From Armatimonadota bacterium (GTDB taxonomy: Bacteria > Vulcanimicrobiota > JACPDS01 > JBDRKI01), in contig JBDRKI010000122.1 in NCBI GenBank assembly GCA_043814095.1, positions 1 through 11,960 on the forward strand: 11,960 nt of DNA. Reading direction: 5' to 3'. This document shows, in pieces, positions 1,687 to 11,960 of this stretch. The translations under genes and the position numbers were made by a program. Under the pieces are notes generated by a model that saw only the letters and a list, made by a program, of their open reading frames with translations, was not told the DNA's origin and did no database searches. Each line of letters begins with the position of its first letter. Positions within the stretch are counted from its first letter, which is position 1.

Positions 1687-2070
1687 TTATATCTTAAATT
1701 TTACACGAGGTACTGAACCAGGTTTAACTTTAATAGGCACCATATCGCGAAGGTTAGCACCCGGCATCTTTCTTATCTTAACTTCACCGATATTAAGCTT
1801 TACGGGCACTTCCACTTTAGCTTTCGGCCTGAAAACATCTAAGCATCTCTGCAGCCAGCTTTTACCGTTGTTTTTGCTTCCTACAGTTGCAGTAGTTGCA
1901 TCTCTTAAATTAGCTCCTTTAGGAGCATTTAAAGGTGTGCCCTCTTCCTGTATACTGTCTACAAAACGAACTACTTGTCCGGGTCTAGGAACATTTGCCC
2001 TTGGTTTTTTACCTATGCCTCTTCCTTCTGTTGCGGTTTTTTGTCCTGTTTTAATATTCATATCTGACAT
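1687..2070 (-). CDS. Orphan basic protein, 127 aa, with GANLRD motifs and a Lys-rich C-terminal tail (pair 1)
   Basis: Strong SD GAGGAGG just upstream of ATG 2070 (MSDMNIKTG...). The ORF-track extension to 2172 runs through the promoter. It has its own promoter and terminator and is paralogous to 2283-2651. Confidence 0.8.
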   Translation of the reverse strand: MSDMNIKTGQKTATEGRGIGKKPRANVPRPGQVVRFVDSIQEEGTPLNAPKGANLRDATTATVGSKNNGKSWLQRCLDVFRPKAKVEVPVKLNIGEVKIRKMPGANLRDMVPIKVKPGSVPRVKFKI

Positions 2071-2116
2071 AATTTCCTCCTCAATCCCCGTATCTATACG
2101 GTTCTTCTTACTTATA

Positions 2117-2192
2117 ACTATACCATAGTGAGTTTGCCAAAATATTAAAATTTTGTTAACAAATGTTAACAAAATGTTAAATTTTTGTTAAC
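2117..2192 (-). promoter_or_regulatory. Promoter with extended -10 and a phased TTAACA-like repeat array
   Basis: Minus-strand TGgTATAGT at 2117-2125 and TTGGCA at 2135-2140. T(G/A)TTAA copies (+ strand reading) start at 2143, 2154, 2164, 2175 and 2186, a 10-11 bp period. Confidence 0.7.
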
Positions 2193-2217
2193 ATTTTAAA
2201 AATAAAATGGTAAATAG

Positions 2218-2258
2218 AAAAACGGAGCTGATTTTCATAATCAAACCCCGTTTTTTTT
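2218..2258. terminator. Intrinsic terminator downstream of 2283-2651
   Basis: Imperfect hairpin AAAAACGG..TGATT-ttcat-AATCA..CCGTTTTT with A/T tracts on both sides. Confidence 0.6.
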
Positions 2259-2282
2259 ATAATTTTATGGATAAATATACTT

Positions 2283-2651
2283 TTAAGGAAGTCTTATAAT
2301 TCTTAAAAATTTGACAAATTTTTGACTTATTTTTAACGCCTTGCCCGGCGCTAAATCATATAGCTTTACGCCCTGTACGGGCAGTTCTTTAACTTTCCCT
2401 ATATTAAATTTTACGGGTGCTTCGATCTTTATCGTTTTACTCGGGATCTTTTTGGGCTGTTCTACAACAGCGGCATCTCTCAAGTTAGCTTGAGGCATTT
2501 TGCTCTTCTTTACCGCCGCCCTAGACTTAATATCCGCACCATCCCTTATATTAGCGCCGGGAATCATCCTTCCGCCTTCTGCCTTAATCTCTCTGCCGGC
2601 TTTATCTATAAATCTATCTAAAGGTGTTTTCCTAACTTTTACATCTCCCAT
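2283..2651 (-). CDS. Orphan basic protein, 122 aa, with GANLRD-like motifs and a Lys/Arg-rich C-terminal tail (pair 1)
   Basis: SD GGAGG upstream of ATG 2651. Contains GANIRD and QANLRD and shares the PVKxNIGxVK block with 1687-2070. Confidence 0.8.
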   Translation of the reverse strand: MGDVKVRKTPLDRFIDKAGREIKAEGGRMIPGANIRDGADIKSRAAVKKSKMPQANLRDAAVVEQPKKIPSKTIKIEAPVKFNIGKVKELPVQGVKLYDLAPGKALKISQKFVKFLRIIRLP

Positions 2652-2684
2652 TATACTGCCTCCGTAAAGATATTAAGTATTAAA

Positions 2685-2719
2685 GTTATAAAAAAAGTAC
2701 CTGTTTGTCAAGTACTTTT
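2685..2719 (-). promoter_or_regulatory. Overlapping terminator hairpin and possible sigma70 promoter for 2283-2651
   Basis: Inverted repeat AAAAGTAC (2693-2700) / GTACTTTT (2712-2719). Minus-strand TTGACA at 2706-2711, with TATAAC after a 15-bp spacer (non-optimal). Confidence 0.4.
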
Positions 2720-2747
2720 ATAAATAAAATATTGTTCCTGCTAAATG

Positions 2748-3722
2748 CTAGTATTCTTCAACAAATGCACCCGCGCCCGGGACCCCGTGAACATCTAAAT
2801 TAATCACTTTTCCGTTATATTCCCTTATTGGCCTTATTGTAAACATAGGGGTATGCCCCACTACCAGGGCTTTGGCCCCTGCTATCTTTAAAAAATCGTC
2901 TATCTCTTCTTCAGAAAAAGGAGCAGCTGTTGAACCAGTATTTATATCAAATCCGAATATTTTTCTGCTCCAGATATAGGATTTTATTAATTCTTCTTTT
3001 TCCTGATCCGGCATGGTCTTTAATTCCTTATTTATGTCTTTTACACTCATCCAGTAGCTTTTATTATCAGGTATGGTATGGGAGAAAAATATCCCGTTTA
3101 TTTTAACTGCAAGCTTTAAATTTTTACCGTAAAATTTTCCAAGATTCCCGTTTAAACTCTTAAACCAGTTATCAAACGATCCGAAGCTCCGGATTGTTTC
3201 TTTGCCTCCCTGTGTAAACCAGTTTAAAAAGTACATGAATTTTTCAAGATTTTTCCCCGTGTAGTTTTTACCGAACAGGTAACTTCTCATATCCATATCA
3301 TTATTTAAGTTTTCAGAAAGAGAAGTAAATTCTTCTTTACCCATACCCTTCACAATATCATGGGAATCAAGCATCATCTTATCGTGATTGCCGAGGAGAA
3401 GATGAATCCTGCTTTTAAATGTTTTCCTTTTCTTACGCAGAAACTTTAATTCTTCCCCTAGGTAGATAATATATTCCAACAGTTTCCTTATGTTAAGAAC
3501 CCATGTGTCGGGACTGCCTTCCAAGGGTTCTCCCCGCCAGTCTTCATAATCACCCATAAGTACAAGATCCGTATTCTTTTCTTTTGTATTCCATTTTAAA
3601 GAATTTTTCTTTAAAAGGTTATTCTCCCGCAAAATACGGATAAACCTGTAATAATCGCCGTGCAGGTCGCCGATGGCGATAAGTTTTTTTATTTTTTTAT
3701 TTTTTTTATATTTTCTCGTCAT
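2748..3722 (-). CDS. Calcineurin-like metallophosphoesterase (PPP family, Shewanella-like phosphatase-like)
   Basis: Ordered metallophosphoesterase motifs GDLHG, GDYEDWRG, GNHD, FSH and GHT, plus C-terminal INLDVHG. Confidence 0.85.
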   Translation of the reverse strand: MTRKYKKNKKIKKLIAIGDLHGDYYRFIRILRENNLLKKNSLKWNTKEKNTDLVLMGDYEDWRGEPLEGSPDTWVLNIRKLLEYIIYLGEELKFLRKKRKTFKSRIHLLLGNHDKMMLDSHDIVKGMGKEEFTSLSENLNNDMDMRSYLFGKNYTGKNLEKFMYFLNWFTQGGKETIRSFGSFDNWFKSLNGNLGKFYGKNLKLAVKINGIFFSHTIPDNKSYWMSVKDINKELKTMPDQEKEELIKSYIWSRKIFGFDINTGSTAAPFSEEEIDDFLKIAGAKALVVGHTPMFTIRPIREYNGKVINLDVHGVPGAGAFVEEY

Positions 3723-3736
3723 AATTTTAAAAAATT

Positions 3737-3775
3737 AATTTAAAGGGAAACCCTTTTTGAGTTTCCCTTTAAATT
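3737..3775. terminator. Intrinsic terminator at the end of the oxidoreductase operon
   Basis: Perfect 15-bp arms AATTTAAAGGGAAAC (3737-3751) / GTTTCCCTTTAAATT (3761-3775). Confidence 0.75.
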
Positions 3776-3804
3776 CTACAAAGAAAATCATATTCCTTGA
3801 TTAT

Positions 3805-4356
3805 TTAGCTGCATTTCGCGCAGCTCTTAACAGTTTCCGCTCCTCTTGCGAGGGCTTTTTTGTTAATCTCTATAAGGTCGGTTTTATCTTTTAATTTCTT
3901 AGATATAAAACTTACTATCGTCTCTATTTTAACTATCTTTGTTTTTTCCGCGTAAGCCCCGAGAGCCACCATATTGGCAACCTTGGTATTACCCAGCTCA
4001 CTGGCAATATCAGTTGCCGGGACTTTTATGACTTCTATATCTTTCCTCTCCACTTCCCTGTTCACCATGGAAGTGTTAAGTATCATAAGCCCCTTAGGTT
4101 TTATTGTGTTCTCAAATTTCTCAAGTGAGGGACGGTTCATGATTATCATTGAATCCGGATTTGAAACTACCGGTGAAGCTATCTCTTCGTCGGAGAAAAT
4201 AACCGTGCAGTTCGCGAACCCTCCTCTTGTTTCGGGACCGTAAGCCGGCATCCAAAGCACGTTTTTGCCTTCCTCAAGCCCCGCGTAAGCAAGCATCTGT
4301 CCTAAAGTCATGACTCCCTGACCGCCGAAACCGGCTACTATTAAATCATATAACAT
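3805..4356 (-). CDS. 2-oxoacid:ferredoxin oxidoreductase gamma subunit
   Basis: AGFGGQG, PAYGPETRGG and NMVALGA motifs. GGAGG SD favours ATG 4356 (MLYDLIV...). Confidence 0.93.
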   Translation of the reverse strand: MLYDLIVAGFGGQGVMTLGQMLAYAGLEEGKNVLWMPAYGPETRGGFANCTVIFSDEEIASPVVSNPDSMIIMNRPSLEKFENTIKPKGLMILNTSMVNREVERKDIEVIKVPATDIASELGNTKVANMVALGAYAEKTKIVKIETIVSFISKKLKDKTDLIEINKKALARGAETVKSCAKCS

Positions 4357-4372
4357 TTTAACCTCCAATTAT

Positions 4373-4518
4373 TTAACTGGCTTTTCTTAATTTTTCTTCG
4401 TACAGTCCTCTATAGAATGACCGACACCCGTAAACTCCTCCAAATCGGGTGAATAAAACCCGAAAAAATTAGGGTCATCCGTAGCTTCAATAATCAAAGA
4501 ATAAGGCATATCAATCAT
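4373..4518 (-). pseudogene. HicB-family antitoxin-like remnant (truncated or internally deleted)
   Basis: ATG 4518 gives MIDMPYSLIIEATDDPNFFGFYSPDLEEFTGVGHSIEDCTKKN* (stop at 4387-4389). This matches the HicB N-terminal pattern Y-x-hydrophobic-E...PDL-x-G/E...G-x-[ST]-x-E-[ED]. A second frame reads EEKLRKAS* to 4373. Not in the ORF track. Confidence 0.65.
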
Positions 4519-4540
4519 TTTTTACACATCCCTTTTAAGC

Positions 4541-5275
4541 TTACACATTCTTAAATTCGCCCAATTTATAATAAGGGAGCATATTTTTCTCAAGCCACTC
4601 CATGGATTCCATAACATCCATACCCCAGTTAGAAGGACATGTTGAAAGAACTTCTACCATGGCAAACCCTTTGCCCTGCACCTGGTTCTCAAACGCTTTT
4701 TTAATAGCCTGTTTGGCTTTGCGCACATGAGCGGGATTATGGGTTGATACTCTGGCTATATAAGAGGGGGCATCTAATGTAGCGAGCATTTCGCTCATCT
4801 TGATAGGATGTCCCGCCATTTTAAGATCCCTTCCGAAAGGCGTTGTCTGAGTTTTCTGACCTTCAAGCGTTGTAGGGGCCATCTGTCCGCCTGTCATGCC
4901 GTATATGGCATTATTAACGAATATAGCGGTTATATTATCGCCTCTTACGGCCGCGTGTACTATCTCCGCTGTTCCTATTGCCGCGAGATCCCCGTCTCCC
5001 TGATAGGTGAATACGGTAAGATCAGGGTTTGTCCTTTTTACGCCCACGGCAACAGCGGGAGCTCTACCGTGCGCGGCCTGGATCATATCGCATTTGAAAA
5101 ATTCATAAGCAAATACCGAACATCCTACAGGCGCAACGCCTACCGTGGATTCCCTTATGCCCAGCTCATCCATTGTTTCGGCAACAAGCCTGTGAATTAT
5201 GCCGTGCGTGCATCCCGGACAATAGGTAAACGGTTTATCTGTTAAACTTTCCGGTTTTGATAATATTTTCTGCAT
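4541..5275 (-). CDS. 2-oxoacid:ferredoxin oxidoreductase beta (TPP-binding) subunit
   Basis: YCPGCTHG, GCS, HGRA, the TPP motif GDGD...NN.IYGMTGGQ, and CP near the C-terminus. Confidence 0.95.
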   Translation of the reverse strand: MQKILSKPESLTDKPFTYCPGCTHGIIHRLVAETMDELGIRESTVGVAPVGCSVFAYEFFKCDMIQAAHGRAPAVAVGVKRTNPDLTVFTYQGDGDLAAIGTAEIVHAAVRGDNITAIFVNNAIYGMTGGQMAPTTLEGQKTQTTPFGRDLKMAGHPIKMSEMLATLDAPSYIARVSTHNPAHVRKAKQAIKKAFENQVQGKGFAMVEVLSTCPSNWGMDVMESMEWLEKNMLPYYKLGEFKNV

Positions 5276-5284
5276 CCTTCCTCC

Positions 5285-6346
5285 TTATACGCTTACTTTA
5301 TCATTTATTAATTTTTCAACATTATCCAAAATCTCTTCCACAGTCGGGACCATGCCGCCCATTCTCCCGTAGAAGCTTACAGGCAGACGCCCGTTAATTA
5401 CGAGTTTAACGTCTTCTACCATCTGACCCGCGCTCATCTCAGTAACTAAAACTTTCTTCCATTTCTTTAAATTCTCAAAATGCTTATCAGGGAAAGGCCA
5501 CAAAGTTATAGGCCTTAAAAGTCCTGCTTTTATGCCTTTAGCTCTTGCGGCTTTAACCGCGCTTTTTGCTATTCTTGCGAGAGTGCCGTACGCAACAATA
5601 AGAATCTCGGCATCATCTGTCATAAACTCTTCGGCTCTCTGCTCTTTTTCTTTAATTTTTGCGTATTTTGCCTGTAGCTTCTCGTTATGTTTTTCCAGTT
5701 CCTGAGGTTCAAGATGTATTGAACTTATAATATTGGGCTCTCTGCCTTTGCATCCCGTTGTAGCCCAGCTTTTATCAAACTTTTTGGGAGTATATTCGGT
5801 AAATTCAACCGGCTCCATTAACTGGCCCAGCATACCGTCTGTCAGTATAAAAGCGGGGTTCCTGTATTCGTCAGCAAGATCAAAGGCAAGCCTTACAAGT
5901 TCAACTATTTCCTGTACGGTTGAAGGAGACAGAACTATCAATCTGTAATCTCCGTGGCCGCCACCCTTAGTGGCCTGGAAATAATCCGCCTGTGAGGGCT
6001 GTATTGTGCCTAAGCCCGGGCCTCCTCTTTGAACATTCACTATCATGCACGGAAGTTCCGCCCCGCAAAGATATGAAATGCCTTCCTGTTTAAGACTTAT
6101 CCCGGGGGATGAAGATGATGTCATAACTCTCACCCCTGTAGAAGACGCGCCGTAAACCATATTAATCGCGGCGACTTCGCTCTCCGCTTGCAGGAATACT
6201 CCGCCTATCTGAGGGAGCTTTTTGGAAAGATACGCGGGAAGCTCGCTCTGGGGGGTGATGGGATATCCAAAGAAATATTTACACCCCGCGGTAATCGCAG
6301 CCTCGCCTATCGCTTCATTTCCTTTCATTAAAACTTTTTTACCCAT
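5285..6346 (-). CDS. vorB: 2-oxoacid:ferredoxin oxidoreductase alpha subunit (VorB-like, 3-methyl-2-oxobutanoate dehydrogenase type)
   Basis: GNEA, GYPITPQSE, QAESE, TSSSSPGISLKQE, RGGPGLG and LWPFP motifs. GGAGG SD favours ATG 6346. Substrate specificity cannot be determined from sequence alone. Confidence 0.9.
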   Translation of the reverse strand: MGKKVLMKGNEAIGEAAITAGCKYFFGYPITPQSELPAYLSKKLPQIGGVFLQAESEVAAINMVYGASSTGVRVMTSSSSPGISLKQEGISYLCGAELPCMIVNVQRGGPGLGTIQPSQADYFQATKGGGHGDYRLIVLSPSTVQEIVELVRLAFDLADEYRNPAFILTDGMLGQLMEPVEFTEYTPKKFDKSWATTGCKGREPNIISSIHLEPQELEKHNEKLQAKYAKIKEKEQRAEEFMTDDAEILIVAYGTLARIAKSAVKAARAKGIKAGLLRPITLWPFPDKHFENLKKWKKVLVTEMSAGQMVEDVKLVINGRLPVSFYGRMGGMVPTVEEILDNVEKLINDKVSV

Positions 6347-6372
6347 ATAATCCTCCATTACAAATTATAGTT

Positions 6373-6603
6373 TTACACGGAAGCTTTCGCTTTTTCATCC
6401 TTGTAAACGGTTATGGCCGCGTCGGGGCACATCATATAGCATATGCCGCACGCGGTGCAGAGCTTCTCATCCGCCTGAACCGCGGGATAAAAACCTTTCG
6501 CGTTTAAGTGATCAGAAAATTTCAATACATTTTTAGGACAAAAATTTATACACAAGCCGCAGCCCTTGCATAAATTCTCATCAACTACCACTTTATTGGG
6601 CAT
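6373..6603 (-). CDS. 2x[4Fe-4S] ferredoxin (delta subunit of the oxidoreductase)
   Basis: Two CxxCxxCxxxCP motifs (CKGCGLCINFCP, CTACGICYMMCP). GGAGG SD favours ATG 6603. Confidence 0.95.
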   Translation of the reverse strand: MPNKVVVDENLCKGCGLCINFCPKNVLKFSDHLNAKGFYPAVQADEKLCTACGICYMMCPDAAITVYKDEKAKASV

Positions 6604-6658
6604 AACAAACCTCCTTGTTTTATTTATATTCAACCCGTAACCGGGCAAATATTTCCGT

Positions 6659-6676
6659 TTGCGAATTATTTCACAA
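6659..6676. promoter_or_regulatory. Probable Rex (NADH/NAD+ sensor) operator
   Basis: TTGCGAA-TTAT-TTCACAA is one mismatch from the Rex consensus TTGTGAA-W4-TTCACAA. It sits between the promoter and the start of a redox operon. Confidence 0.7.
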
Positions 6677-6729
6677 ATTGCCGCATAAAATAAAACCGTA
6701 TTTTAAAACAGGTTCCGGCGATCCTTTAC

Positions 6730-6758
6730 ATTATATAATATACGGATATTTACCGCAA
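6730..6758 (-). promoter_or_regulatory. Sigma70-type promoter of the oxidoreductase operon
   Basis: Minus-strand TTGCGG (6753-6758), 17-bp spacer, TATAAT (6730-6735). Confidence 0.55.
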
Positions 6759-6821
6759 ATAAAAGACCACTGCTAATATTTGACTAATATTTAATAAATC
6801 CTTTAATTGAATAAAAAATAT

Positions 6822-6859
6822 AAAAAACAGGATTATGACCATAATTATTCCTGTTTTTT
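6822..6859. terminator. Intrinsic (bidirectional-type) terminator downstream of pair 2
   Basis: Arms AAAAAACAGGA (6822-6832) / TCCTGTTTTTT (6849-6859). Confidence 0.65.
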
Positions 6860-6948
6860 TATTTATTTTTTACTTTAAGGCAAATGTTATGTATCTGTTA
6901 TTAAGAAAGCCTGCCTGCTTTATATTATTATTCATCTCGCTCATAATA

Positions 6949-7779
6949 TTACCACCATTTAATTTTCATCTTTGGCAACTTTGCCGGTTCAACCTTTATT
7001 TTATGTTTAAACCTTACCGTCCTAATTTCCGAAGCTTTTACGGATTCATGAAGAACAGTAGTAGCAGGCTTCGGTTTTCTAAAAATGTTTTTGAATTTAT
7101 CAAGCATTCTCCCCATTCCTTTTTTCCTGGGAGCAATACCTTCCTGGATATACCTGCATAACTTATTGAATCCCAAGTTATTATAGACTTCATTGTGTTT
7201 TAACATCAGGAGTTCGGCTTTAAGCTTTTTAATGACATACTCGGTTTCTATAAAATAGTTACTGTTTTTAACATAGCTATTTCTTACACAATCCACAACC
7301 TTTCTTGATCTTGGGTCGATTTCGACAGTAAATAAAAATCTCTCCAGGTCTTTCTCAAGCTCTGCCGTCATATATTCCAGTTTTCTTCCATCAAAAATAT
7401 TTTCAAAAACCTTTTTAAAGCTTGTCCTTACTTTGTCTTTCGGTCCGGCCAGCTCTTTCTCCGCATCGGTTATATACCTGTAGTAAAGACCTTCTTCTAG
7501 TTGACTGCTGTGCTTATAAAGAGCATACTGGTGTTCGTATTTTAATCTTGCCGAAAAATACTCCCCCCAGTCTTTATCCGCGGCAACCAGCATATACTGG
7601 AGTTCCTTCGCTTCCTCTCTTATAACATTTCTTACGGCAACGAAATCACCGGGGTCTATGCCCGAACTTTTTACCTTTCCCCCGAAATAATTTAAAAGCT
7701 CCAGAGAAAGGTTTGTCGTATCTGAAACTTTAAGCTGAAATGTGGCTGAGGAAACAGGCGTAAGCACTTTATTGTTCAT
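6949..7779 (-). CDS. Orphan protein, 276 aa, with a Lys-rich C-terminal tail (pair 2)
   Basis: SD AAGGAG upstream of ATG 7779 (MNNKVLTP...), 10 bp after the stop of the upstream gene. Diverged paralog of 7790-8620. Confidence 0.82.
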   Translation of the reverse strand: MNNKVLTPVSSATFQLKVSDTTNLSLELLNYFGGKVKSSGIDPGDFVAVRNVIREEAKELQYMLVAADKDWGEYFSARLKYEHQYALYKHSSQLEEGLYYRYITDAEKELAGPKDKVRTSFKKVFENIFDGRKLEYMTAELEKDLERFLFTVEIDPRSRKVVDCVRNSYVKNSNYFIETEYVIKKLKAELLMLKHNEVYNNLGFNKLCRYIQEGIAPRKKGMGRMLDKFKNIFRKPKPATTVLHESVKASEIRTVRFKHKIKVEPAKLPKMKIKWW

Positions 7780-7789
7780 AAAAACTCCT

Positions 7790-8620
7790 TTAGGGTACGA
7801 TCTTCCAGCGACCGGAAGGAATACTGCCTTTTTTAATTTTAGGCAAGCCAAGCGGTTTAGGCATAACCGGCTTGGATTCCCTTAATTTTAATTTAATTTT
7901 TAATCCATCGGTAATTTTTTCTATTTTTTGCGCCGCGGCATTAAGCAGTTGGCTTTTATAAACGCTGTATCCGTTATTTTTCATAACTCTCATAAAAACC
8001 TGATCAAATATAGTTCCGTTCCTTTTCAAAACTCCCAATTCTTTTTTAATCCTGCCTAATAAACATTCTATATTTGTTCCCCTGCGAATCTCTGCCCTAA
8101 AATCAAATAACTTGCCGCGGGGAAAGGTTCTCTTTCCTTCACGGACAGCTCTAAAAGTAAAATATGATTTTAACAGGTCTTTTTCCATAAATTCATATAC
8201 TTTGCACCATTCTTTTTTATCGGGATAAATTCTGCGCAGAACATCATTTAATCTTGCCTCCATCTCTTTTCTGCGCCTTAGGTAAGTAAATCTGGCGTAT
8301 GCCATCTCTTTATATTTTTCATGAGGAACAGATTCGGGTATTTTCTTGATATTCGGATTAAGAGGAAAGCATGTTTCTTCAACCCTGTATTTTGCGGGCA
8401 CATAATTGGAATAAAACTCCCTGGATGCTTCATCAATCACAGCCTCCAGATCCCTTATACACTTCCCCATACTTATCTTAAGGGCATTCGGATTATTTGA
8501 TTTTAATTCAGGATCCGCCATTCTGCGTGTTAAATAATCCACCAGCTCTTGCGATATATAGCCGTTACTGCTAGTCTTTCCCGCGGTTATATCCGTGGAT
8601 GTAAGCTTTATACCTTCCAT
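7790..8620 (-). CDS. Orphan protein, 276 aa, with a Lys/Pro-rich C-terminal tail (pair 2)
   Basis: Long ORF with SD AGAGG and an upstream promoter. Diverged paralog of 6949-7779. Confidence 0.82.
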   Translation of the reverse strand: MEGIKLTSTDITAGKTSSNGYISQELVDYLTRRMADPELKSNNPNALKISMGKCIRDLEAVIDEASREFYSNYVPAKYRVEETCFPLNPNIKKIPESVPHEKYKEMAYARFTYLRRRKEMEARLNDVLRRIYPDKKEWCKVYEFMEKDLLKSYFTFRAVREGKRTFPRGKLFDFRAEIRRGTNIECLLGRIKKELGVLKRNGTIFDQVFMRVMKNNGYSVYKSQLLNAAAQKIEKITDGLKIKLKLRESKPVMPKPLGLPKIKKGSIPSGRWKIVP

Positions 8621-8672
8621 TTTATTCCTCTAAATATAAATTATAACTATCTAAATAGTCCCTCCAATTACT

Positions 8673-8809
8673 ATTATAACATAAGTATATTAACAAATTG
8701 TTGCCAAATTGTTAACAATTTGTTAATAAAGTTTCCTTTATAGGAAAAGAAAAAGTTAACATTTTGTTAACATTTTTGTAATATTTTGGCAACATCAATG
8801 CTTTATAAT
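8673..8809. promoter_or_regulatory. Divergent promoter region with two mirror-image phased TTAACA-like arrays
   Basis: Minus strand: TGtTATAAT at 8673-8681, with repeats starting at 8688, 8699, 8710 and 8721 (11-bp period). Plus strand: GTTAAC 8755, GTTAAC 8766, GTAATA 8778 and GGCAAC 8788, then TATAAT at 8804-8809. Central near-palindrome TTTCCTTTATAGGAAA at 8732-8747. Confidence 0.7.
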
Positions 8810-9003
8810 GGTATTAGAACACCTTGCCCCGGTTAAATGCCAGAAAAAAATTACATAAATCCCTTTTAACCTGTAAGCAACGAAAATATGATGATTTTCA
8901 TGAAAATAGGTCTTTTGACCGATATTTTATAAAGATAATGAATGATAAAATTAACTTAGGGAAGGGAAAAAAATTTAAATTAACCGAGATAGGATAGATT
9001 AAG

Positions 9004-10680
9004 ATGAGCAATATTTATACAAGATACATGGATATAACAAGAAGCGCCCTGCACGCCAGGCCGGAAAGTTTAAGTTATACCCGTTATTACTGCAGATACA
9101 ACGGGAAGGCCTACCCCGCATACCAGGATGCCGGAAACCCCGATCCGGACAATAATAACTGGTATATCATAATTGAAATCCCGGCCATGAGAAGCGCGCG
9201 TATGGGAAATCCTGTCTATATTCCGGCAAAGCATAAAAGAGTTAACGTTTCTAAAAACCAGGTATATCAAAAACAGGCCTCCTTTACATTTAAATATTCT
9301 CAAAACGACAAAGCAGTCAAGGAACAGAAAAACCTTCACGGCATACTTGAAGGACTGGGCGTAAAAGCAAAAGGAATAACAATATTAACAGAAGGCATGT
9401 GCGATGATGACACCTTAAGATTCATGAATACCCGGCATTCCAAAGAGTTTTTCACAGAACTATTAACACAGATAGATCAGGTATACCCCGATATCTCGGG
9501 CTATATGATGTATCTTTTTGATAATGTTATAAACAAACGCTATTCGCATAAAGACCTTTCCTTAAGCTTAAAAGATTTTGAACCGGATAATTTAGGTTTA
9601 AATGAATCCGAAGTGTTCCTCTGCCAGGGATTTAAACAGGTAATGGTAGAGATATACAATAAACTTCATAAAAAACATGTAGGCAAATTCGTAGTCTTCC
9701 CGCACCTGGGAAAAGCTAAATTCAGCAAATGGCCGAGGAATGAACGCAACAGGTTCTACTGGTTCTGTAAAAAACACTCGGATCAGAAAACCTGTAATGC
9801 GATTAAAGAAAAAATACTGGCTGAAGAGATAAAGCTCGGTTGGTGGGATAAACTCTGCGTATCTTTAACCGGTTTTGATATTATAAATCCGGGATGCAGG
9901 ATGGCAGATGTAAGGAAAAGCGTATATGCACTAGGTCCGTGTATTAACAAGAAAAAAGAAATGAAGGCATTTTACAGAAAACATAAATCCGCAATAAGAA
10001 GCGGAAAGCTTCACATGTTCATGCTCCCCCACCTAGACGGGGGGAGAATTGTTCTTGTAAAAAACGATCCCAAGATACAGAAACAGTTTAAAAAACAGGT
10101 ATCTAAAATGGCGATGACCCAGGCAACAAACGAAATCTTCAGCCCTAAAGGCATAAGCGAAGCGCATCCCTTAAGACATCTTTTTGAAAAAATGGATGAA
10201 AAAGCTTTCGAAGGCATAGCTAATATAAAAACGGATTCAAAAGAACTGCTTCTTGCGGCTTTCGGATTGTACGCCTTCTTTATGGGGGTAAGAGATATAG
10301 TTGAATTTACATTTAACCCTTACTCCTGGTGGGAATTTATAATATCACTCCAGGATATGGGTCAGGATTTCAAGATGATCGGTGAAGTCTTCATGAGGGA
10401 GCAGAATGAAGCCCAGTCAGCTGTTGTGGTATGCATGCTTGCAGGAGTTCTTTACGGGGGTAAAGTATCCCATTCCCTGCATAATGCGCTTAATAATAAA
10501 ATCAAAGCAAAGATGCTGCTTAAAAACATAAGATCCCAGACAAGAGCTATGGCGGGCACCCCTTATGCTCGCAGCACTTCAAAAACAAGTTCCGCTGTGA
10601 AAATAAAGGCCAAACGTACACGCATGCCGCGAAGCAAATTAAAAGTATTTAAAAACCGGGTCAAAACCGGAAAGAATTAA
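9004..10680 (+). CDS. Orphan protein, 558 aa, with C-proximal hydrophobic segments and a basic C-terminal tail
   Basis: Long ORF with AGGA upstream of the ATG. No recognisable family motif. Hydrophobic stretches LLLAAFGLYAFFMGV and AVVVCMLAGVLYGG. Confidence 0.85.
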   Translation: MSNIYTRYMDITRSALHARPESLSYTRYYCRYNGKAYPAYQDAGNPDPDNNNWYIIIEIPAMRSARMGNPVYIPAKHKRVNVSKNQVYQKQASFTFKYSQNDKAVKEQKNLHGILEGLGVKAKGITILTEGMCDDDTLRFMNTRHSKEFFTELLTQIDQVYPDISGYMMYLFDNVINKRYSHKDLSLSLKDFEPDNLGLNESEVFLCQGFKQVMVEIYNKLHKKHVGKFVVFPHLGKAKFSKWPRNERNRFYWFCKKHSDQKTCNAIKEKILAEEIKLGWWDKLCVSLTGFDIINPGCRMADVRKSVYALGPCINKKKEMKAFYRKHKSAIRSGKLHMFMLPHLDGGRIVLVKNDPKIQKQFKKQVSKMAMTQATNEIFSPKGISEAHPLRHLFEKMDEKAFEGIANIKTDSKELLLAAFGLYAFFMGVRDIVEFTFNPYSWWEFIISLQDMGQDFKMIGEVFMREQNEAQSAVVVCMLAGVLYGGKVSHSLHNALNNKIKAKMLLKNIRSQTRAMAGTPYARSTSKTSSAVKIKAKRTRMPRSKLKVFKNRVKTGKN

Positions 10681-10683
10681 AAA

Positions 10684-11240
10684 CTAGGGCAGTCTGATTT
10701 TTATTCCTTTAACTTTAGGAAGTTTTAATTTTATCTTTAAATTCCTGATTCTTGCAGCTTCTGGCACAATAATTTTAATCTTTCTTGCAAAACCATTCTT
10801 TAGGTATCTTTTAAATCTTTTCAAAGAAGTGGAAATTCTTATCTTCTTATGTTTTGAATATTCCCTGATATCTGAATTGAAATCATTAATAAACCTGCTT
10901 AATATCCATTTATTAGTCCATGTATTATTCCACTGCTCTAAAGTATAAAAACCGCAAGTGGCGTGAACTTCCTTAAAGAATTTAATTTTAACTTCAGGGA
11001 GAGAAGAAAATAAAGTATTGAGATATCGTCCCGCATAAGAAGAATCCGCTTCTATTTTTTTATAATAGCGGATCTTACAGTATTATAGGAAGGGCTAGTG
11101 CCGTGTTCTTTTAAAATATCAGAAACACACTTTTTTATAAAAATCTTAAGTTCCCTTATCCGGACATGTTCTGAAAGAATAAATTCTTCATATTTAAAAC
11201 CTGCCGCAGAAATGCCGGCAGGATGTAATGTATTACTCAT
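10684..11240 (-). pseudogene. Frameshifted orphan gene (about 185 aa if joined) with a Lys-rich C-terminal tail (pair 3)
   Basis: The 62-aa ORF stops at ATA AAA AAA TAG. The -1 frame continues open as IEADSSYAGRYLNTLFSS...RIRNLKIKLKLPKVKGIKIRLP* to TAG at 10684-10686. The joined protein aligns along its length with 11269-11856. Confidence 0.78.
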
Positions 11241-11268
11241 ATATTATTCTCGGCAAAAAACTTTAAAT

Positions 11269-11856
11269 TTATAATTTAACTTTAGGCATTTTCGGAACTT
11301 TAATCTCAATCCTGCGGGTAGTAATCTTTTTGAAAGGAAACACTTTAACGCCTTTTAATGCATCCATTCCTTTAAAAACTTTAGATGTGTTGACGGCTTT
11401 CACTCCATTGCCCGGGGACTTTGTAACAAATCTTCTAAAGGTTTTAATTTTGTTTCCTACTCTTATCTTTCCCACAAATTCTTCAAGCACCGTTCTTTCG
11501 TTTTTATATGCCAGCTCTAAAATCGGACGTATAGGCGTTGAATAATTCTTAGCGCCGCTTGCATGCATCTTAACAGCGGTTATCAGCTCGTTTATAACCT
11601 GTCCGCCTATTTTTTCACTTTTCAATAATTTGTCAAAAAATCTGGCAGAAGGCGTATTCTTTTTTAGCGCGCTTGCAAGAACCTGATTAAGGGCAGCATC
11701 ATAGCTCATACTATATCTGGATTGTACGACCTTATTAGCGGTTTCCCTTACAACTTCTTTGATAAAATCCGTAAGATTGGCAAACTGCTCGTTAGTTATG
11801 GGGAGAGTCGTACCGTTAACTCTCGGATAACAAAATGATTCAATTTTACTATTCAT
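11269..11856 (-). CDS. Orphan protein, 195 aa, with a Lys-rich C-terminal tail (pair 3)
   Basis: SD AAGGTG upstream of the start, a near-consensus promoter upstream, and paralogy to 10684-11240. Confidence 0.82.
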   Translation of the reverse strand: MNSKIESFCYPRVNGTTLPITNEQFANLTDFIKEVVRETANKVVQSRYSMSYDAALNQVLASALKKNTPSARFFDKLLKSEKIGGQVINELITAVKMHASGAKNYSTPIRPILELAYKNERTVLEEFVGKIRVGNKIKTFRRFVTKSPGNGVKAVNTSKVFKGMDALKGVKVFPFKKITTRRIEIKVPKMPKVKL

Positions 11857-11914
11857 TATTTTTCACCTTTTCTACTTTTAAGCTGCAAATCAACTTGATT
11901 TAAAAAACATAAAC

Positions 11915-11943
11915 TTTATAATGTTTTTCGGCTCAAATGTCAA
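11915..11943 (-). promoter_or_regulatory. Sigma70-type promoter for pair 3
   Basis: Minus-strand TTGACA (11938-11943), 17-bp spacer, TATAAA (11915-11920). Confidence 0.7.
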
Positions 11944-11960
11944 CACTTATATTAATATTT

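Follow-up and report, generated by a model that had tools for sequence, protein, structure and literature searches.

The 11,960-base window analysed here is the whole of contig C122 in a 2.50-Mb, 129-contig assembly of an Armatimonadota bacterium (39% GC, rated 99% complete). Seven of its genes, p1 to p7, encode proteins that end in a short basic tail, which an earlier note had taken for a candidate export or targeting signal. They sit between genes for aspartyl-tRNA synthetase (AspRS), a metallophosphoesterase, a four-subunit 2-oxoacid:ferredoxin oxidoreductase and the start of a HAD-type gene. New in this analysis is that genes with such tails mostly lie behind phased arrays of the repeat GTTAACA. 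The tail set, its common promoter and the physical character of the tails are shown by the data, and we are confident that the tail bearers form a real, co-regulated and lineage-specific set.

Gene counts refer to a crude gene set, made by greedy calling of the longest non-overlapping open reading frames (ORFs) without curated annotation, which holds 2442 genes and covers 91% of the genome. Of the 40 relatives that were compared the closest, genome G001, belongs to the same order and all others share only the phylum. A search with the AspRS of the window had as its best match a metagenome-assembled genome labelled Armatimonadetes, at 58% identity, with CPR and Chloroflexota records next, which is too mixed a picture for assigning a phylum.

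The window genes and the tail set

The seven genes, their tails and the end of the window are as follows.

1687..2070, minus strand: p1, 127 residues; probable start at 2070 with ribosome binding site GGAGG at 2076-2080; the longest ORF reaches 2172
1690-1761, minus strand: tail of p1, beta-periodic, PIKVKPGSVPRVKFKI
2283..2651, minus strand: p2, 122 residues, paralog of p1
2286-2357, minus strand: tail of p2, helix-periodic, ISQKFVKFLRIIRLP
6949..7779, minus strand: p3, 276 residues from the called start at 7779; second gene of the p4-p3 operon
6952-7023, minus strand: tail of p3, KIKVEPAKLPKMKIKWW
7790..8620, minus strand: p4, 276 residues
7793-7864, minus strand: tail of p4, LPKIKKGSIPSGRWKIVP
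9004..10680, plus strand: p5, 558 residues; short member of a giant-protein family of this genome
10588-10677, plus strand: tail of p5, aligning with the basic linker behind the N-domain common to the long members
10684..11240, minus strand: p6, in two frames, ORF 11052-11240 and then 10684-11082, with the switch beside an A7 run at 11055-11061
10687-10758, minus strand: tail of p6, LKIKLKLPKVKGIKIRLP
11269..11856, minus strand: p7, 195 residues; member of a family of proteins of about 200 residues with four dispersed members
11272-11343, minus strand: tail of p7, RRIEIKVPKMPKVKL
11820..11960, no strand: overlap with contig C43, 141 bases, 100% identical to C43:1-141

Translation reproduced the seven C-termini quoted in the earlier note, that of p6 by way of the frame change. 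The motif hydrophobic-P-[KR]-x-K was present in six of the seven tails, and the shared pieces LKIKLKL (p4 and p6), IRLP (p2 and p6) and GS[VI]P (p1 and p4) were found where that note had placed them. Its statements on the surroundings held as well: the five complete housekeeping proteins of the window have no such tail, and Sec signals are missing from the tail proteins, which have no N-terminal hydrophobic stretch or transmembrane segment save for a hydrophobic pair in p5.

In 15 of the 2442 ORF-genes the motif ended no more than 25 residues from the C-terminus; five of them were among the 13 genes of the window versus 10 among the 2429 elsewhere. The binomial probability of this clustering is 1.5e-9, or 8e-6 if the window is counted as three of 10 independent units. 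The earlier note had named a Lys/Ile composition effect as one explanation that would undo its proposal. Since the motif occurs in 5 of 13 window genes versus 10 of 2429 others, the tail cluster is not such an effect, and composition was rejected as its source (P ~1e-9). For plain alternation of Lys and hydrophobic residues, which is 1.25 to 1.9 times as frequent at C-termini as internally and does not discriminate, a composition effect was accepted.

The expectation that the motif would mark a large orphan set across the genome was not borne out. Its density in the last 20 residues was about twice the internal one, but this enrichment was driven by the window alone. Profiles were compared with backgrounds of internal windows, shuffled C-termini and shadow ORFs. 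One built from the seven tails recovered itself and little else, with no new C-termini above background, and one built from 16 tails returned, at 6 bits or more, seven non-training C-termini versus 8.7 per 2107 internal windows and 11.3 per 2107 shuffled C-termini. With the profile checks at background, the set saturates at about 20 proteins, less than 1% of the genes. The members outside the window came from pattern scans and charge filters: C27_8965, C31_5607, C36_69638, C69_9969, C46_34126, C125_1877, C43_133, C43_1326, C1_43225, C1_42244 and three tandem genes on C97. Coding scores of the tail genes lie between the 5th and 32nd percentile of genes and well above those of shadow ORFs; the exception is C31_5607, a doubtful gene.

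Because of the 141-base identical overlap, the window and C43 are neighbours in the assembly graph. The tail genes C43_133 (C43:133-1215) and C43_1326 (C43:1326-2015) come after p7 on the same strand, which brings nine tail genes together in about 14 kb. Three groundwater-metagenome runs, one of them RNA, share 0.06 to 0.16 of the words sampled from window positions 6900-11900; they were not counted as evidence. A different common C-terminus, the acidic EPE(L/I)Y(K/R)(L/I)(I/L)E..(I/V)(V/I)P, occurs in four tandem orphan genes of 283 to 305 residues at C4:154-3735 (minus strand); the two that were scanned had no Pfam family.

Phased GTTAACA arrays and their regulon

Three arrays lie in the window.

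2132..2192, minus strand: p1 array, five to six units, GTTAACA, TTAACA, GTTAACA, GTTAACA, TTAATA, GGCAAAC; -10-like TATGGTATAGT
8688..8727, minus strand: p4-p3 array, ATTAACA, GTTAACA, GGCAACA, GTTAATA at 11-bp phase; TTATAAT at 8673-8679
8755..8794, plus strand: p5 array, GTTAACA, GTTAACA, GTAATA, GGCAACA; TATAAT at 8804-8809

The arrays consist of two to five direct repeats of GTTAACA at a phase of 11 bp, with T-rich spacers of 4 nt that produce the pattern TTAA-N7-TTAA. Their last units are often degenerate (GGCAAYA, GTTAATA), and they end 9 to 21 nt before a TATAAT-like box. Those of p4 and p5 stand back to back with the palindrome CCTTTATAGG at 8731-8750 between them. Palindromes of the type CCCTTATAGGG occur beside many arrays (for example at C120:5183, C12:29156 and C124:16222), on the side away from the driven gene. 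The other window promoters are of another kind: p2 has a TTGACA-type promoter of its own and no array, with a terminator-like hairpin at about 2215-2253 separating it from the p1 array, and p7 has a sigma-70-like promoter (TTGACA 11938-11943, TATAAA 11915-11920), likewise without an array.

Genome-wide there are 51 distinct exact GTTAACA-N(3-5)-GTTAACA arrays, none of them inside an ORF-gene; the reversed pattern used as a control gave none at all. An array stood ahead of the gene or operon head for 11 of the 20 tail genes versus 154 of the 2422 others (odds ratio 18, P 1e-8). The p5 array lies 231 nt upstream, too far to have been counted (12 of 20 if it is included), and C125_1877 at a contig end was uncallable. 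Because the tail list had been compiled before the motif was seen, this enrichment supports the tail set independently.

Many genes behind the arrays share the orphan character of the tail proteins. After 21 distant followers in two long same-strand runs had been dropped, 84 of the 105 array-assigned genes were scanned, and 52 of these 84 had no Pfam family versus 6 of 84 random genes taken from six random 18-kb regions. For the tail proteins themselves no Pfam family was found in any of the 17 tested, versus 78 of the 84 random genes having one. Array-driven genes that could be named include those for the flagellar rod proteins FlgB/C, a type II secretion system F protein (T2SS-F) with pseudopilins in a pilus-like operon, seven HEAT-repeat and two caspase-domain proteins, two metallopeptidase-like proteins, a GH114 protein and a LysM deacetylase. 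Arrays also precede the hook gene and giants of the p5 family such as those on C17 and C107. The earlier view of a coherent, lineage-restricted and effector-like set is supported by these data, with no Pfam family in 17 proteins, no Sec signals and a promoter motif held in common with motility genes.

The N-termini have a common character too. Asn, Ser, Thr and Gln make up 30.5% of the first 20 residues in tail proteins and 28.3% in the first genes behind arrays, versus 18.7% elsewhere (P 3e-5 and 4e-8), and both groups are low in Leu.

The pattern GTTAACA-N4-GTTAACA gave 133 strand matches in this genome versus 1 to 22 in 21 of the 40 same-phylum genomes, with the control pattern at zero everywhere; genome families f5, f12 and f17 had no match. 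The low copy number in these 21 genomes compared with the 133 matches here indicates that the motif is old and that the regulon was strongly expanded in this genome.

Phased direct repeats before a -10 box are typical of winged-helix response regulators. PhoB-type boxes, with 7-bp direct repeats and 4-bp AT-rich spacers in place of the -35 element, have the same layout as the arrays. The genome encodes three OmpR/PhoB-type (Trans_reg_C) regulators, at C97:38444-39139, C36:18454-19176 and C20:20232-20918. None of the three passes an NCBIfam equivalog cut-off; their best matches are YycF, MtrA and PhoB, and CtrA is not among them.

In Alphaproteobacteria the CtrA box, TTAA-N7-TTAA, occupies the -35 position in the promoters of about 100 genes, flagellar and pilin genes among them (PMC11264516). 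The arrays contain this alphaproteobacterial consensus, at or upstream of -35, and stand before flagellar and pilus-type genes. They differ in having two to five strictly phased units where CtrA has one site, in serving mostly orphan targets, and in belonging to a genome that is not placed in the Alphaproteobacteria. Membership of the arrays in the CtrA system is not claimed.

Protein bodies, relatives and export routes

The earlier note had spoken of four unrelated-looking families. This scheme is too tidy: p1 and p2 are paralogs (expectation value E 1e-5), p6 and p7 are alike only weakly (E 0.02), p3 and p4 have no similarity (E 7) although both have 276 residues, and p5 stands apart. Expansion by tandem duplication was seen for p1 and p2 in the window and for the pair C97_33174/33970, but for no others. 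Both p1 and p2 contain two or three copies of an (M/I)P-x-ANLRD (MPxANLRD) repeat without a family match, and have a stretch VPVK(L/F)NIG.VK in common.

Around a motif K(N/E)..S....F(F/L)K.LF, p7 can be aligned with four dispersed proteins of about 200 residues, their identity being about 20%. The non-training proteins ranked highest by a profile of this family without its tails were the p6 piece (E 0.04) and two tail-bearing C97 genes (E 0.09 and 0.14), all weak. Comparison of the bodies of the 20 tail proteins by BLASTP gave three pairs at E <=0.003 and several more weak, collinear pairs. The bodies are either unrelated or diverged past recognition; either way the tail would have been kept or acquired repeatedly.

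Besides p5 itself, the p5 family has eight matches within this genome; lengths range from 615 to more than 3893 residues, and the contigs are C120, C17, C78, C90, C56, C73 and C107. Its members share an N-domain of about 450 residues that contains a pair of hydrophobic helices; a basic strand-turn-strand linker comes next, and then long C-terminal parts that are dissimilar, some with HExxH; the C90 frame of more than 3893 residues carries two M16 peptidase units. Another long frame, of 4900 residues, fills the whole of contig C86 (C86:2-14701, plus strand) with no stop at either end. The genes p5 and p6 converge with their stop codons 3 nt apart (10678-10686), which leaves no room for a terminator hairpin between them.

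Outside this genome no relatives of p3 or of the p5 and p7 families were found. A search of 5.8 billion proteins returned only p3 itself for p3, and for the alignment of the p7 family only proteins of the same genome, three among the matches listed. Exhaustive HMMER searching of 1.84 billion representatives with the p7 family gave only the five training proteins. Neither the p5 nor the p7 family occurred in any of the 40 related genomes, where matches at E 0.02 and 0.06 were judged noise, and p5 had no match in the genome contig collection. The 20-tail profile hit only open frames of 18 to 69 residues in genomes G001 to G004, noise in the case of the same-order G001. Of 14 proteins compared with PHROGs only C46_34126 had matches, two weak ones of unknown function. 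For p7 the ESM Atlas gave no usable feature match, and all structure rows had template modelling (TM) scores below 0.4.

Sub-threshold matches to antitoxins, TacA1 for p7 (18.2 bits, cut-off 21) and CbeA for p3, bear on a possible role of the tail as a degradation tag. An adaptor of an AAA+ protease would recognise it and keep stage-specific proteins short-lived. The set does look stage-regulated, and basic C-terminal recognition motifs of ClpX are known. Such a tag is nevertheless highly improbable, with the antitoxin matches under the cut-off and the tails well above known degrons in length and amphipathic character.

The earlier note had the tails recognised by a secretion machine that exports their bearers as effectors. 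VirB/D4 substrates, which carry a net positive, Arg-rich signal in their C-terminal 20 to 30 residues, offer a precedent; such positively charged C-terminal signals were reportedly described by Vergunst in 2005. The tails resemble them as unstructured C-terminal ends, 20 to 30 residues long, in which basic residues alternate and whose proteins are otherwise unrelated, but have Lys instead of Arg and a strong hydrophobic face. VirB4 (PF03135) and VirD4 (PF02534) of the type IV secretion system (T4SS) gave no match in the 99% complete genome, with controls matching in 1 and 5 of 14 genomes. The same was found for TssC (PF05943) and the phage-type sheath (PF04984) of type VI (T6SS) and contractile systems (controls 1 and 3 of 14 genomes) and for the encapsulin shell PF04454 (control 3 of 14 genomes). 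SprA (PF14349) had no match here and likewise none in the control genomes; type IX secretion (T9SS) substrates combine a folded C-terminal domain of 70 to 100 residues with a Sec signal, and tails of about 20 residues on proteins without a Sec-type N-terminus speak against membership. Type I substrates have an uncleaved C-terminal signal and use a TolC-type outer-membrane protein with a dedicated ABC/MFP pair that adjoins or matches the substrate. TolC-type proteins occur, with 12 OEP domain matches in six open frames; no ABC or MFP gene lies beside the inspected tail genes.

Of the routes proposed earlier, T4SS and encapsulin thus lack their defining genes, whereas type I secretion (T1SS), for which TolC-type proteins are present, and an unknown route are still conceivable. 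Among the machines that the earlier note had wanted looked for, a flagellar type III secretion system (T3SS) is present, and VirB4/VirD4, TssC and the phage-type sheath are those not found. The flagellar cluster lies on C54 and includes FlhA, FlhB, FliO, FliM, FliN, FliI, FliH, FliJ, FliK and the hook. The export gate is encoded in a genome in which arrays precede the hook gene, FlgB/C and tail genes alike.

Two extra soluble FlhA C-domain proteins are encoded at C4:6190-7566 and C67:7431-8699, both on the minus strand. One FlhA_C-type protein, of 422 residues, carries an FlhB C-domain in front (Bac_export_2, residues 8-97; FHIPEP, residues 214-410). The type II secretion ATPase family T2SSE has 16 matches, five long and GspE/PilB-like and the rest PilT-like, and there are four secretins, many for a 2.5-Mb genome.

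Recognition of the tail by a secretion machine is consistent with the orphan nature of the proteins, their missing Sec signals and their co-regulation with flagellar and pilus genes. It would also fit the inventory of a flagellar T3SS with two FlhA_C-type extras, 16 T2SSE matches, four secretins and TolC-type proteins. Known signals for T3SS, however, are located at the N-terminus, and T2SS depends on Sec or Tat for its substrates; the tails come in alpha and beta forms without a fixed common sequence, no machine gene adjoins the tail genes that were inspected, and VirB4, VirD4, TssC, sheath and encapsulin genes were not found. As judged from the sequences, export by way of the tail is unlikely. 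A more specific version, which we regard as less likely still, is that the tail is the address label of an undescribed export or delivery route in a deep-branching uncultured bacterium, for instance a flagellar gate with the FlhA_C-type extras or one of the many pilus-like machines. The regulon would then be an effector programme of a contact or motile stage, grown about ten-fold in this lineage through newly born genes.

In the Campylobacter Fed/Cia type, non-flagellar proteins are expressed together with the flagella and leave the cell through the flagellar type III apparatus. Substrates of that apparatus depend on their N-terminus and on the export gate, and the N/S/T/Q-rich N-termini found here are a compositional hint in this direction. 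The tail proteins resemble them in a promoter type common with flagellar genes, polar N-termini and missing Sec signals, and may be exported in a similar way. They differ in that the array is not a sigma-28 box and that the Fed/Cia group is not marked by cationic C-terminal tails.

Physical character of the tails and its interpretation

An alignment of the 20 tails has no invariant column; what recurs is a physical pattern in two forms. The strand-periodic form (K-x-K-x-K, a Pro/Gly turn, K-x-K-x) was found in p1, p3, p7, C27, C69, C31 and both C43 proteins, and the helix-periodic form (IQKFLRAIKKIIP, SQKFVKFLRIIRLP, NIQKLLRMFGL) in p2, two C1 and three C97 proteins. In the alpha (100 degree) or beta (170 degree) hydrophobic moment, 12 of 19 tails rank in at least the 96th percentile among all C-termini. 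The last 20 residues of the six window tails that were measured carry a net charge of +5 to +8, versus a genome mean of +0.95 for C-termini and +0.21 for internal stretches. A basic linker rich in Pro and Gly stands in front of the tail, and the final residue is frequently Trp, Phe, Tyr, Ile or Pro.

At the DNA level the tails share next to nothing. Their longest common stretches measure 10 to 18 nt, save in the C97 paralog pair, and a shared DNA element was rejected as their source, the same peptide pattern being written in different codons. Since the tail DNAs have no common element, the pattern is kept at the protein level. This bears on whether the tails have any function at all, or are Lys/Ile-rich ends of young ORFs that run into AT-rich 3' sequence or over a shared element. 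The 39% GC of the genome, the basic average of its C-termini, the commonness of Lys/hydrophobic alternation and the low GC and low coding scores of the tail genes would all agree with such an origin. We regard it as very improbable in view of the clustering (P ~1e-9), the correlation with an independent promoter motif, the differing codons, and the Pro and Trp codons of the tails, which are GC-rich.

The basic strand-turn-strand might instead wrap DNA or RNA in the manner of HU/IHF arms or SPKK-type motifs. High positive charge and P-[KR]-x-K turns suit this idea, and the profile of the seven tails gave a weak match in the region of the C-terminal arm of the HU-like protein C75_3415. That match, at 5 bits, is far under significance, however, the bodies have no known DNA-binding domain, and a terminal Trp, Phe or Ile with a marked hydrophobic face is unusual for such tails; nucleic acid binding is quite improbable.

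The occurrence of alpha and beta forms without a conserved sequence motif points to a physical function, and the lack of motif conservation would fit physical anchoring no less well than receptor recognition. We therefore give preference, though tentatively and at somewhat less than an even chance, to the tail as an anchor to an anionic surface or membrane. C-terminal amphipathic helices serve as membrane-targeting sequences, polybasic and aromatic motifs take part in membrane binding, and peripheral proteins and numerous effectors attach to anionic membranes by ends of this kind (PMC4252000, PMC5599653, PMC13516693). The tails have the high moment and positive charge behind a flexible linker that mark an amphipathic C-terminal membrane-targeting sequence. 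Like those of the MinD/FtsA type they are short, cationic and amphipathic and stand at the extreme C-terminus of soluble bodies behind a flexible linker, and the helix-periodic tails of p2, C1_43225, C1_42244 and the three C97 proteins fit this type. They differ in that over half are strand-periodic with Pro-rich turns and that the bodies are orphans, not cell-division ATPases.

The set comprises about 20 fast-evolving soluble proteins, restricted to this genome, with mostly helical bodies and three common add-ons. The array promoter ties them to a regulon of at least 50 promoters with flagellar, pilus-like, giant and orphan genes. The second add-on is the polar, Asn/Ser/Thr-rich N-terminus, and the third a flexible basic Pro/Gly linker followed by a short cationic amphipathic strand or helix, often closed by Trp, Phe, Pro or Ile. 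On the anchor reading this last part would hold the proteins to an anionic surface by electrostatic and hydrophobic contacts. The surface would most likely be a membrane, which could be the inner membrane of the cell itself or that of a partner or prey cell. If the proteins are exported, the N-terminus and the flagellar type III apparatus would be a likelier route than the tail, which would act after delivery; the flagellar gate would be the most economical route because of the flagellar co-regulation and the polar N-termini.

Several observations weigh against this interpretation or against the coherence of the set. The cationic amphipathic test is loose, flagging 45 of 2007 genes outside the regulon versus 11 of 100 within it. 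The members of the tail set were chosen by eye among the results of pattern scans, so that the set is no independent statistic, and no profile of independent origin adds to it. Nine of the 20 tail genes, including p2, p7 and p6, have no array (eight if p5 is counted as having one). The polar N-termini may merely reflect disorder in young genes. The p5 tail aligns with an internal linker of its paralogs, and because it overlies this linker p5 may resemble the other tails by composition. None of the searches described above yielded relatives of the tail proteins in which conservation of the tail or co-occurrence with a machine could be followed. AlphaFold models of p7 (five-row alignment) and p5 (six-row alignment) were of low confidence, with a mean predicted local distance difference test score (pLDDT) of 47 and 46, and showed the p7 tail as coil and the p5 tail as a low-confidence helix. 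With respect to the earlier note, what it observed is real, if local; its reading of the tail as an export signal is possible and unsupported, and two of its named routes, T4SS and encapsulin, are excluded.

The promoter array is the more testable discovery and the most useful outcome, as it defines the set independently of the tail. It points to a CtrA-like response-regulator regulon outside the Alphaproteobacteria that is strongly expanded in this lineage. If the proposed picture is true, one genome shows how new genes become useful: orphans without relatives would have gained a promoter, a polar N-terminus and a cationic tail, and through these three add-ons would have been joined to a programme of motility or contact. 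For uncultured lineages the promoter array also offers a search for candidate effectors that needs nothing but sequence and starts from the array instead of from homology.

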